From assembly GCA_963422395.1 (NCBI GenBank), contig OY729431.1, positions 832,001 through 896,000 of the forward strand: a stretch of DNA of 64,000 nt. Direction: 5' to 3'. Below the pieces are notes generated by a model, which had not been told where the DNA came from, did not search any database, and was given only the letters and a program-made list of their open reading frames with translations. Source of the DNA: Vicinamibacteria bacterium. GTDB taxonomy: Bacteria > Acidobacteriota > Vicinamibacteria > Marinacidobacterales > Marinacidobacteraceae. This document shows, piece after piece, positions 1-64,000 of the stretch (positions are counted from its first letter, which is position 1; every line of letters begins with the position of its first letter). Made by a program: the position numbers and the translations under genes.

Positions 1-603
1 CCCGCCCGGGTCGGCGTGAACACCCTGCGCTACGAAGCCCGCGAGATCGAACGGATCGCGCGGGTGGCGTTCGCCGCCGCCGCTCGCCGGCGCCGCCGGC
101 TGCTGTCGGTGGACAAGGCGAATGTGCTGGAGTCCTCGCAGCTCTGGCGCGAAGTGGTGAACGGGGTGGCGCAGGACTATCCGGCGGTCCGCCTCGACCA
201 CATGTATGTGGACCGGGCGGCGATGGAGATCATCCGCAGCCCCCGCGCGTTCGATGTGCTCCTGACCGGCAACCTGTTCGGAGACATCCTGAGCGACGAG
301 GCGTCGGTGCTCGCTGGGTCGCTCGGGCTCCTGCCCTCGGCGAGCGTCGGCGAAGGCGCGGGACTCTACGAGCCCGTCCACGGCTCGGCGCCGGACATCG
401 CCGGCCGAGGGATCGCGAACCCGCTCGGGGCGATCTCCTCGGCAGCGATGATGCTGGAGCTCTCCTTCGGTCTCGCGAACGAGGCGGCAGCGATCCGCGC
501 CGCAGTAGGCGCCTGCCTTCGGGGAGGCGTGCTTCCCCGGGACCTCGGCGGCTCCGCGGACACTGCCGAAGTCACGAACGCGGTACTCGCGGCGCTCTCC
601 TGA
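1..603 (+). CDS. leuB: 3-isopropylmalate dehydrogenase (5' truncated by window)
   Basis: Motifs [20 protein letters not shown] and [14 protein letters not shown]; frame is open from base 1. Confidence 0.95.
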
Positions 604-678
604 GCGGGCCCGCCGGCTCCGCCCCTCTCGCGAGCTTCCGCCGCGCGCCCGGTTTCCCCGCCCGACTCGGGGTTCGGT

Positions 679-1164
679 TCAGGAGGCGCTGCCGCCGGGG
701 GCCGAGCCCGCGCGCAGCTTCGCGGCCAGGTAGGCCGGATGCTCCACATGGAGAAGCGTCGCCACCTTGCGGATGAGGTGCTCTTCCTCCCCGGCCAACT
801 GCTCGTCGGCGAACGCGACCCGGAACAAAAGCTCGATCACCACGGCTTTCTGTTCGCGGGAGAAGCTCCGGTCCACCGAGCGGGTGAATTCGTAGAGCGA
901 GACCGCCTTGCGGGACCGGCGGCCGGCGATCTCGAAGACCTCCGCGGTCTCCTGCGGATCGAGGGCGAAAGCGGTTTCGATGCCGGACACGATGGCCTGG
1001 CGCTCGCGCTCGTCCACTTCGTGGTCGGCCGCCGAAACCTCGAGCAGCAGGACCGCGGTGGCGATCTGCACCTCCCGGAGTGAGGGCGGCGCCGCGGGAG
1101 TGCCGCCCGCGGCATCGCCGGCCGCCGGCCGCCGCCCGCTCACGAAGTCGCGGATCCAACTCAT
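679..1164 (-). CDS. TerB family protein
   Basis: 161 aa; pattern ATAVLLLEVSAAD..E..LFRVAFAD..EEHLIRKVATLL typical of TerB-like proteins. Confidence 0.8.
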   Translation of the reverse strand: MSWIRDFVSGRRPAAGDAAGGTPAAPPSLREVQIATAVLLLEVSAADHEVDERERQAIVSGIETAFALDPQETAEVFEIAGRRSRKAVSLYEFTRSVDRSFSREQKAVVIELLFRVAFADEQLAGEEEHLIRKVATLLHVEHPAYLAAKLRAGSAPGGSAS

Positions 1165-1201
1165 CGTTCGTTCGCGTCCTCGGGCGAGTCCCGGAGCGGG
1201 G

Positions 1202-62160: not shown

Positions 62161-62795
62161 CGAGGCTGTTCGCTGCGATTCCTCTCCCCGAGGCGGTCCG
62201 GTGCCGGCTCGACGAAGCCGCCGCGGAATTCTGTCGGGCGCTGCCCCAGGGTATGGCGCGCTCCGTCCCGCCCGAGAATCTGCATCTGACCCTGCGCTTT
62301 TTCGGTCCGGAGAATGCGTCGGGAGGTCAGGGGCCGACCGCGGCTTCGCTCCGGGAGCGACTCGCCAGCAGGACCGCCGGCTTGCCTGCCCCGGTCCTCA
62401 CGCACACGGGCTTTTCCGCCTTTCCCGGAAAGGGGAAGGTGCGGATCGTCTGGGCCGGGTTTTCCGAGGAAGGAGGCCGGCTCACTGCCGTTCAGCAGGC
62501 TACCGAGATGGCTGCGCGGGACGCCGGTCTCGCTCCGGAGGCACGCCGATTCGTCCCGCACGCGACGATCGCCCGACTCCGGGTCCCGTCGCCGATCAGC
62601 AGGGAAGTGCTGGCGTTGCTCGGAACCGGGGGCGCGGCGGAAGCCGCCGCCGGGGGTCCCTTTCCCGCCGCCTTCGTGGACCTCATGGCCAGTATTCTCA
62701 CCCCGGGCGGCGCGGTGTACCGCCGGTTAGCCCGTTTCCCCCTCGCTTACTCCCGGTCGTCCGTCAACGCCGCGGATTCCTGGGGTGAGGGGTGA
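62118..62795 (+). CDS. thpR: RNA 2',3'-cyclic phosphodiesterase (2H family)
   Basis: RLFAAI, two HxT motifs (HLTL, HATI); follows cinA. Confidence 0.9.
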   Translation: MRDATFRPAPGARSPRLFAAIPLPEAVRCRLDEAAAEFCRALPQGMARSVPPENLHLTLRFFGPENASGGQGPTAASLRERLASRTAGLPAPVLTHTGFSAFPGKGKVRIVWAGFSEEGGRLTAVQQATEMAARDAGLAPEARRFVPHATIARLRVPSPISREVLALLGTGGAAEAAAGGPFPAAFVDLMASILTPGGAVYRRLARFPLAYSRSSVNAADSWGEG

Positions 62796-62810
62796 AGAGG
62801 AGGAGATCAG

Positions 62811-63133
62811 GCGTTTCGCTCTTCCCAGGGGGGAGCGAGACGCGGCACCACCCCACGCCCCGATCCGAGAGCTGCGAGTTTCGTCCGTGGCCTGAAAACA
62901 ACATGTTGCGCCCGAAGCGGAGCTTCGGGAGCGTCGCAGCGGGGGAAAGATGTGAAAGGGGGTTTACCCCCGTTCACGAATTGGTGACACCGAATCCGAA
63001 ATCGCTTCTATGGCAGGAGTTCGGATTCGCGGCGCGGAGCGCCGGGCGATTCGGGAACGGGGCGTTTTCTCTCTTTCCGCAAGGGAGCGAGACGCGGCAC
63101 CACCCCACGCCCCGTTCCCGAATCGCTCAGCTC
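62811..63133 (-). repeat. Diverged full-length family A unit plus second hairpin, reverse orientation
   Basis: All hairpins recognisable, with many compensatory changes. Confidence 0.85.
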
Positions 63134-64000
63134 GACGATCCGGAATTCCGCGAGCAGGTCGGGTCCGAGGCATGCATACCGCGCCGTCGCCGGGAGCGGC
63201 TGGGAAAGCGGCGGCCGCCGGCGGCCGCCGGCCTGGGATCTCGCGGCGTCGAACAGCCCGGTCCCTTCGCCCCGGCCCAGAAACCGCGGCGCCAGGTAGA
63301 GGACGAGACGATCGGCCAGCCCGTCTTGTAAAAATGCCGAAGTCAGCCGGGGTCCTGCTTCCACGAGGAGCGTCCGCGCGCCGCGCCGCCCGATCTCGGT
63401 CAGCACCGCTTCGAGCGAGAGCGCGACCGCGGTGTTCTCCGGGGTGGGCCCAGGGGAGGCCAGCGGGGCTTCGACGACCTCGACGCCGAGAGTGCCGAGC
63501 GCCCGCCGCGCCGCCGCCGGAGCTTCGGGACCAACCACCACCAGCACCGGATCGCGGTCGCGTCCGTTCAGGATCCTCGCTTCCGGGGCGATCCGCAGGG
63601 TCGGATCCAGCACCACCCGGAGCAGCGCCCGAGCGCCGCGGCGAGGCCGCGCCGTCAGCCGGGGATCGTCCGCAGCCACCGTGGCGATCCCGGTGAGGAC
63701 TGCGTCGTTCTCGCGCCGCAGCACCCGCCCGTGCCCCCGGGTGCGGGGCCTCGTGATCCAGCGGGTCCCGGGCGGAGCCATCACTCCGTCCACCGAGATC
63801 GCCGCCTTCACCGTGACCCAGGGCCTTCCGGTGCGCAGGTATTTGAAAAAGGCCGAGTTGAGATCGCGAGCCTCGGAGTCGAGCACGCCGGTGCTCACTT
63901 CGACACCGGCGGCGCGCAGCCGGCGGAAGCCTCCTCCGGAAACCCGCGGGTCGGGGTCGGGATGTGCCGTGACCACCCGGCGGATCCCCGAGGCGATGAT
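63008..64000 (-). CDS. ribD: Riboflavin biosynthesis protein RibD (5' truncated by window)
   Basis: DPDPRVSGGG, KAAISVDG, WIT, DDPRLTAR, LLVEAG, LYLAP. Confidence 0.92.
   Translation of the reverse strand: MIASGIRRVVTAHPDPDPRVSGGGFRRLRAAGVEVSTGVLDSEARDLNSAFFKYLRTGRPWVTVKAAISVDGVMAPPGTRWITRPRTRGHGRVLRRENDAVLTGIATVAADDPRLTARPRRGARALLRVVLDPTLRIAPEARILNGRDRDPVLVVVGPEAPAAARRALGTLGVEVVEAPLASPGPTPENTAVALSLEAVLTEIGRRGARTLLVEAGPRLTSAFLQDGLADRLVLYLAPRFLGRGEGTGLFDAARSQAGGRRRPPLSQPLPATARYACLGPDLLAEFRIVELSDSGTGRGVVPRLAPLRKERKRPVPESPGAPRRESELLP

Follow-up and report, generated by a model that had tools for sequence, protein, structure and literature searches.

Chromosome-wide avoidance of the palindrome ACGT in an uncultured acidobacterial lineage and the case for continuing selection of the restriction-modification kind

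The palindromic tetramer ACGT is strongly depleted throughout the chromosome of a Vicinamibacteria bacterium (NCBI GenBank assembly GCA_963422395.1), and on balance this loss is probably maintained by continuing purifying selection at the level of DNA, of the kind exerted by Type II restriction-modification (R-M) systems; we infer a restriction enzyme as its agent. The analysis followed up a stretch of 64,000 nucleotides, here called the window, which comprises positions 832001-896000 of the single 2,908,270-base contig OY729431.1. A sequence-only reading of the window had described an extreme depletion of ACGT, with ATGT used instead, and had put it down to a long-resident system acting on ACGT, either through a cytosine methylase whose product deaminates or through restriction. 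The genome that carries the window (genus g1) is labelled G000 below, and its relatives are labelled likewise where they have to be told apart.

ACGT occurs nine times in the window, whereas base composition predicts 179 sites and Markov models of first and second order predict 142 and 84. The Poisson probability of nine or fewer sites with 84 expected is 2e-25, and the exact count thus bears out the depletion first described by eye, lying far under every model expectation. All six sites that had been listed are real, while three more (at 19254, 27368 and 61758) had been missed. The whole genome contains 561 copies as against 8484, 7014 and 4130 expected under the same three models, and a census against the Markov models gave ACGT the lowest ratio of observed to expected among all 256 tetramers, both in the window and genome-wide. 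The palindromes TCGA, GATC and CCGG had been called abundant and are so, with 548, 584 and 1198 copies in the window. An excess of ATGT and ACAT is likewise present: at 1.59 and 1.58 times the second-order expectation, both are within the top three over-represented tetramers of the genome. Since all ten classes of NACGTN contexts lie at 0.04-0.19 of expectation, the target is the bare tetramer. The 455 short intergenic spacers (67 kb) hold 10 sites where 79-202 were expected, and over all codon phases, NACGTN contexts and spacers the depletion amounts to 5-20 fold. The window is ordinary chromosomal core in which ACGT is down about 10-20 fold. A second palindrome, GTCGAC, is also avoided in G000 (244 copies versus 1104 expected from 5-mers, 0.22), and CTCGAG stands at 0.56 of expectation; the avoidance of GTCGAC is probably the mark of another restriction system.

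Codon choice was analyzed in open reading frames (ORFs) called by the pattern of G+C content at the three codon positions (GC1/GC2/GC3), a crude procedure that gave 1441 ORFs covering 70% of the genome; 41 ORFs were called in the window. Synonymous codons were shuffled within each ORF, by which protein sequence and codon usage are preserved, and 21 non-depleted loci of the same family (72,737 codons) provided the relatives' baseline; these loci were grouped by their own ACGT counts, which is circular for ACGT itself though not for amino acid pairs. With a hyphen marking the codon boundary, ACG-T was observed 59 times in G000 where the shuffle predicted 853, xAC-GTx 194 times with 2227 expected, and xxA-CGT 70 times with 313 expected. 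The corresponding ratios are 0.08, 0.09 and 0.21 in G000 versus 0.57, 1.01 and 0.99 in the non-depleted relatives, a loss of 5-11 fold in each codon phase (4.7-fold for xxA-CGT).

The switch of Asp, His, Asn and Tyr to T-ending codons before Val, claimed from the window, is a property of the whole genome. T-ending codons make up 90-95% of these codons before GTN versus 3-32% before other codons. In the window, NAC-GTN occurs twice and NAT-GTN 67 times, while before other codons NAC is found 1079 and NAT 389 times (Fisher odds ratio 93, p 1.5e-34); the quoted infB examples were located at 46000 and 46186. The fraction of NAT before GTN is 0.941 in G000 (3007/3196) and 0.169 in the non-depleted relatives (102/603), and all 69 such codons in genus g4 are NAT. 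Replacement of ACGT by ATGT follows from the code: in NAC-GTN, the commonest phase, the change from NAC to NAT is the sole silent escape. Thr ACG before T-starting codons is down to 1.9%, and its main substitute, ACC, is not a transition product.

The avoidance of ACGT in DNA has altered protein composition. Ratios of observed to expected for the dipeptides Asp-Val, His-Val, Asn-Val and Tyr-Val are 0.60, 0.56, 0.71 and 0.70 in G000 versus 0.92, 0.89, 0.99 and 0.94 in the relatives, so that these pairs are 30-40% rarer; they are lowered in genus g4 too, as judged from small counts. G000 proteins showed no compensating rise in Asp-Ile, Asp-Met, Met-Phe or Met-Tyr.

The residual sites are clustered. 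Of the 561 sites, 93 fall in four islands that total 45.6 kb, or 1.6% of the genome, and in which ACGT reaches 0.70-1.6 of the second-order expectation (Table 1). The islands are recent arrivals that the depletion has spared, and their normal density within the same contig means that the depletion is not a property of assembly or composition. The proposal of a long-resident pressure on ACGT is upheld: the site is scarce in core genes, in spacers and in every flanking context, and its density is normal in mobile islands alone. That accessory genes follow the same rule holds for the methylase, toxin-antitoxin and DprA genes of the window, which are without ACGT, and fails for the recently acquired islands elsewhere.

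Variation within the assembly speaks for a pressure that still acts today, rather than for a fossil one. The end of the contig (2872300-2908270) repeats its start (1-36000) as an untrimmed circular overlap, the removal of which gives a genome size of about 2.872 Mb. The two copies differ by 328 substitutions, 248 of them transitions, in two blocks at 99.4% and 98.5% identity, and look like two co-assembled haplotypes. Not one of the 328 differences creates or destroys an ACGT site. From the observed substitution spectrum, 4.28 ACGT-creating changes are expected in one direction (P = 0.014), or about 8.6 in both directions when this value is doubled, and the lack of any indicates that purifying selection is still acting. 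Control palindromes were hit about as often as expected: AGCT 5 times (4.40 expected), TCGA 6 (6.08), GATC 9 (5.99), CATG 4 (2.85), GTAC 3 (3.08) and TGCA 3 (3.63). In contigs of public runs that cover an ACGT-rich island, none of the 40 variant places listed out of 174 touches or creates ACGT, a comparison made on contigs only and uninformative about the turnover of sites.

The distribution among relatives was assessed in 39 relatives of the same order, each represented by a single stretch of up to 20 kb; the unpublished genome G033 was not sampled and is included in homologue tallies over 41 genomes, with no conclusion depending solely on it. Four of the 40 genomes, G000 included, are depleted. 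In genus g4, ACGT was found 0 times in G003 (47 expected) and once in G008 (51 expected), and the genus g7 genome G006 is partially depleted (8 versus 46 expected); the other 35 sampled relatives are near expectation. The valS loci, an independent sample, agree: G000 has 1 site in 5937 bases, G003 0 in 5880, G008 1 in 5925 and G006 3 in 4560, and the other 21 family genomes have 7-21 sites each. The depletion is thus graded, being near absolute in g4, about 0.07-0.14 in G000 and about 0.2-0.3 in G006. Genus g4 has nearly lost AGCT as well (G003 0 versus 47 expected, G008 2 versus 51), and AGCT is absent from both of its valS genes. The two g4 genomes also share C5 methylases (L154/L151 at 73% and L156/L153 at 48% identity), and G003 has an EcoRII-type pair in addition. 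In a quick tree of ValRS sequences, g7 groups with g4 (SH-like approximate likelihood ratio test, SH-aLRT, 95). G000 sits in an unresolved three-way split with g7+g4 and g3+g2, so that the sequences are compatible with one origin of the depletion or with two. ValRS identity between the depleted genera is 73-76%, at which silent sites are saturated, and an inherited footprint would therefore need continued pressure. A literature search for the name 'Marinacidobacterium' returned no papers.

The sequence-only reading had proposed a search of the genome for ACGT-specific enzymes, which turned up no gene for such an endonuclease or methylase. MaeII, HpyCH4IV and TaiI are known enzymes of this specificity. 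The methylase genes of G000 comprise a single C5 methylase and matches to PF01555 (8), PF02384 (8) and PF02086 (3). The C5 methylase gene (676652-678139) has an overlapping vsr gene, and within the family its close relatives are restricted to G003 (70% identity) and G008 (45%). As the ACGT system it looked promising from this distribution over depleted genomes and was then rejected. Its operon, encoding proteins of 653, 331 and 251 amino acids without a Pfam family, the methylase and often Vsr, is found in about 40 loci of metagenome-assembled genomes, representing at least four phyla and titled Acidobacteriota, Acidimicrobiia, Chloroflexota and Gemmatimonadota. Flanks poor in ACGT surround only 1 of 51 operon loci (the G003 record), the operon in 38 other hosts has 578 ACGT sites versus 626 expected (0.92), the G008 copy lies within an ACGT-rich segment, and the presumed target-recognition stretch is conserved like the catalytic part. 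Pooled palindrome statistics over 47 operon loci revealed no common avoided word. Hence the operon family of the sole C5 methylase does not avoid ACGT elsewhere. G000 contains no second C5 methylase and no remnant of the g4 C5 methylases. In PADLOC, the operon methylase is best matched by DruM, the 653-residue protein weakly matches the candidate PDC-M33A, and an HmaC-like DUF499 ATPase adjoins the operon in G000.

The other methylases fared no better as candidates. Those at 1690093 (1690093-1691019), 1385648 (1385648-1386868), 610471 (610471-611544) and 497548 (candidate span 497387-499632) and the one at window position 8245 were all rejected, each being matched in non-depleted relatives; a further candidate methylase lies at 2017382-2018035. 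For the methylase at 610471, the best match in the other depleted genomes reaches at most 47% identity. A 227-residue ORF convergent with the latter was considered as its endonuclease and dismissed because it is family-wide and of low complexity. The PF01555 match at 497387-498105 on the minus strand is split across two frames at profile positions 110/119, which means that either the gene has a frameshift or the consensus is wrong there. The methylase-like gene of the window is conserved in the family (84% identity in G007, 71% in G004, 53-56% in g4 and g7), no endonuclease family was found beside it, and it appears to be a resident orphan methylase; it is not implicated in the depletion, being kept in the non-depleted G007 and G004.

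Our preferred explanation is a resident orthodox Type II R-M system that would cut ACGT, so that each unprotected site would carry a small risk of self-cleavage; given long enough, sites would disappear at every position that tolerates a change. The enzyme may belong to an unrecognized family, may be encoded apart from its methylase or may be present in part of the population. Several points weigh against this explanation. All five methylases tested fail to track the depletion, and no restriction endonuclease family was detected beside seven methylase loci by Pfam, PADLOC and NCBIfam. Islands with 20-41 ACGT sites became established despite the supposed active ACGT endonuclease, and their entry past it is hard to envisage unless the DNA was single-stranded or already modified. 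The haplotype test covers 36 kb, a small sample, and the relatives' baseline is partly circular, as its 21 loci were grouped by their own ACGT counts. Selection on a harmful hypermutable site could also thin xxA-CGT.

Mutational decay, in which A-m5C-GT (m5C, 5-methylcytosine) deaminates to ATGT or ACAT faster than the site is re-created, as proposed for M.Hpy99XI, would account for the high rank of ATGT and ACAT among the over-represented tetramers and would have let the ACGT-rich islands enter freely. It has a precedent for the same word in Helicobacter pylori, as excerpted from PMC10423294, G000 does possess the C5 methylase with its overlapping vsr gene, and ACA-T is slightly raised compared with three control codon families in a renormalized table. 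We nevertheless consider decay improbable. The operon family of that methylase does not avoid ACGT (flanks and host counts as above), and the genome holds no other C5 methylase or remnant of one. The excess of ATGT and ACAT is 1.69-1.73 of expectation in coding DNA and 1.08-1.18 in spacers; being nearly confined to coding DNA, it is a consequence of the genetic code, that is, a constraint effect and no evidence of deamination. The near lack of an excess in spacers speaks against decay, albeit as a statistic that does not discriminate, since under both models little excess is predicted there once equilibrium is reached. The 4.7-fold loss of xxA-CGT favors selection because both transition products (Cys and His) are non-synonymous, and G000 showed no excess of Val-to-Ile or Val-to-Met after Asp, His, Asn and Tyr and none of Thr-to-Met. 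Finally, the 10-70 fold hypermutation required should leave new ACGT alleles behind, most of which, by our own estimate, would survive at about 1% divergence if hypermutation acted alone, whereas the haplotypes contain none with about 8.6 expected. Of the two mechanisms originally offered, site selection fits better and the deamination branch is disfavored; restriction is unproven. A fossil footprint, left by an ancestral ACGT R-M system of g1, g7 and g4 that G000 has since lost, is in keeping with the failure to find a cognate system, with the tolerated islands, with the graded depletion over g4, G000 and G006, and with a valS tree compatible with g1 grouping with g7+g4 (the position of g1 being unresolved); traces of lost systems are documented (excerpts of PMC4687349). 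This explanation, too, appears unlikely. NAC is preferred to NAT about 4:1 to 5:1 elsewhere, so that 94% NAT-GTN should relax quickly, the two haplotypes again lack the expected new sites, and between genera as far apart as these, with saturated silent sites, an ancestral trace could not have lasted unaided.

Selection of a kind other than restriction, for example by a toxin that cleaves mRNA at ACGU or through a role of ACGT in DNA binding or repair, would explain why the search turned up no restriction enzyme. Toxin-antitoxin pairs are present in the genome, such as PIN/FitA at window positions 11164-11845, and a palindrome reads alike on both strands, so that selection on DNA and selection on RNA cannot be told apart by strand asymmetry. 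However, coding DNA and spacers are equally depleted, and all strongly avoided words of the clade are palindromic (ACGT and GTCGAC in G000, ACGT and AGCT in g4), the mark of Type II systems acting on duplex DNA, which makes this alternative quite unlikely. An assembly artefact, whereby a long-read consensus would misread modified ACGT as ATGT or ACAT, is suggested by the resemblance of the contig, with its untrimmed 36-kb circular overlap, to a long-read assembly, and we give it hardly any credence. Islands in the same assembly have normal ACGT density, contigs of four other public runs match island stretches with 0 differences, and three other genomes (G003, G008 and G006) are depleted in the same way. 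The expected excess of Thr-to-Met, Arg-to-Cys or Arg-to-His and Val-to-Ile or Val-to-Met is absent, and ACG-T gave way to ACC, which mis-called transitions would not produce.

With continuing selection of the Type II kind as the preferred reading, the case resembles what is described for other hosts. According to the excerpted text of Rusinov et al. (2015, PMC4687349), Type II recognition sites are widely avoided, increasingly so with residence time, and the avoidance can outlast the system. As in the orthodox Type II R-M hosts presented there, a short palindrome is strongly under-represented chromosome-wide in one lineage, avoidance is associated with long residence, recent DNA is undepleted and avoidance without a recognizable system is possible. 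In contrast to these cases, no cognate pair of endonuclease and methylase was identified here; in addition, pairs of Asp, His, Asn or Tyr with Val are down by 30-40%, an effect that the excerpts do not address. In H. pylori, the excerpts of PMC10423294 list ACGT among the most under-represented and unstable methylated words, with M.Hpy99XI as the m5C methylase, and attribute the loss mainly to m5C deamination. Common to both organisms are the word itself, the concentration of residual or lost sites in the second codon phase, ATGT and ACAT as the commonest variants and a density that does not track the presence of a methylase. Unlike the H. pylori case, as far as those excerpts describe it, the sole C5 methylase here is not tied to ACGT, xxA-CGT is depleted and variation suggests purifying selection. 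The MANTIS preprint was set aside, as the sites it deals with are asymmetric and 6 bp long. The acidobacterial clade is thus a new instance of a known phenomenon, in an uncultured group, and what it adds to H. pylori is evidence for selection, no fitting methylase, affected proteins and a pressure shown to be current.

Besides the features in Table 1, the window contains, by Pfam, leuB, sigma factors, valS, metK, lptFG, the rimP-infB-rbfA-truB-pnp cluster, purC and transporters, together with the one methylase-like gene, the PIN/FitA pair and a DprA-family gene. A long open frame at window 3566-7216 on the plus strand combines a beta-lactamase domain (PF00144) with a D-Ala-D-Ala dipeptidase domain (PF01427); the ORF caller left it unresolved, and its G+C content by codon position shows an ambiguous pattern.

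Table 1. Coordinates of residual ACGT sites and genes in the window, and of ACGT-rich islands and the C5 methylase operon in the contig (TRD, target-recognition domain).
Feature	Scale	Position	Strand	Remarks
Residual ACGT	window	19254..19257		in Na+/H+ exchanger ORF 18401-19588(-); phase xAC-GTx
Residual ACGT	window	27368..27371		in valS 26572-29511(-); phase xAC-GTx
Residual ACGT	window	35902..35905		stretch without called ORF
Residual ACGT	window	40068..40071		CACGTG context, upstream of Asp/Lys-type tRNA synthetase ORF 40156-42072
Residual ACGT	window	44556..44559		just upstream of called infB ORF (44608-47478)
Residual ACGT	window	50421..50424		in pnp 50152-52479(+); phase xxA-CGT
Residual ACGT	window	52413..52416		in pnp 50152-52479(+); phase xxA-CGT
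Residual ACGT	window	56632..56635		uncalled or intergenic stretch
Residual ACGT	window	61758..61761		uncalled or intergenic stretch
infB GHVDH = GGG CAT GTG GAC CAC	window	46000..46014	+	rare CAT before Val, usual CAC elsewhere
N6/N4-type DNA methylase-like gene	window	8245..9105	+	weak PF01555 match (3e-10)
ACGT-rich island	contig	906000-909000		MmeI TRD/C fragments and integrase
ACGT-rich island	contig	1778500-1788500		Type I R-M with AAA_13, and DDE transposase
ACGT-rich island	contig	2166000-2190000		SNF2/HEPN-DUF499/DUF1156 system (BREX-related), integrase-PhdYeFM fusion call
ACGT-rich island	contig	2716900-2725500		outer-membrane (OMP)/TPR/PD40 gene block
C5 methylase operon	contig	676095-681748		G000:C1:676095-681748 (L011:8095-13748); homologous loci L056-L103

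Word avoidance is a record of the restriction enzymes with which a lineage has lived. Sequence alone suffices to read this record, a point of importance for uncultured bacteria. The present record is exceptionally clean, with a ten-fold loss in codon phases and spacers alike, a cost to proteins, islands that date themselves and a current pressure. It also holds a lesson: a coding excess of ATGT and ACAT is by itself not evidence of deamination, as the code forces it under any anti-ACGT pressure. We tentatively propose that an ACGT restriction activity may be kept in a small marine clade of the class Vicinamibacteria (g1, g4 and perhaps g7), encoded by genes of an undescribed family or exerted by an endonuclease whose gene lies apart from that of its methylase. 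If so, its selective effect would have sufficed to strip the proteome of a third of all pairs of Asp, His, Asn or Tyr with Val, and the footprint of ACGT avoidance would point to an undiscovered enzyme. In a phylum with few characterized restriction enzymes, the case narrows the hunt for an ACGT-specific system, and it predicts that DNA meant for transfer into these organisms should lack ACGT or be methylated beforehand.

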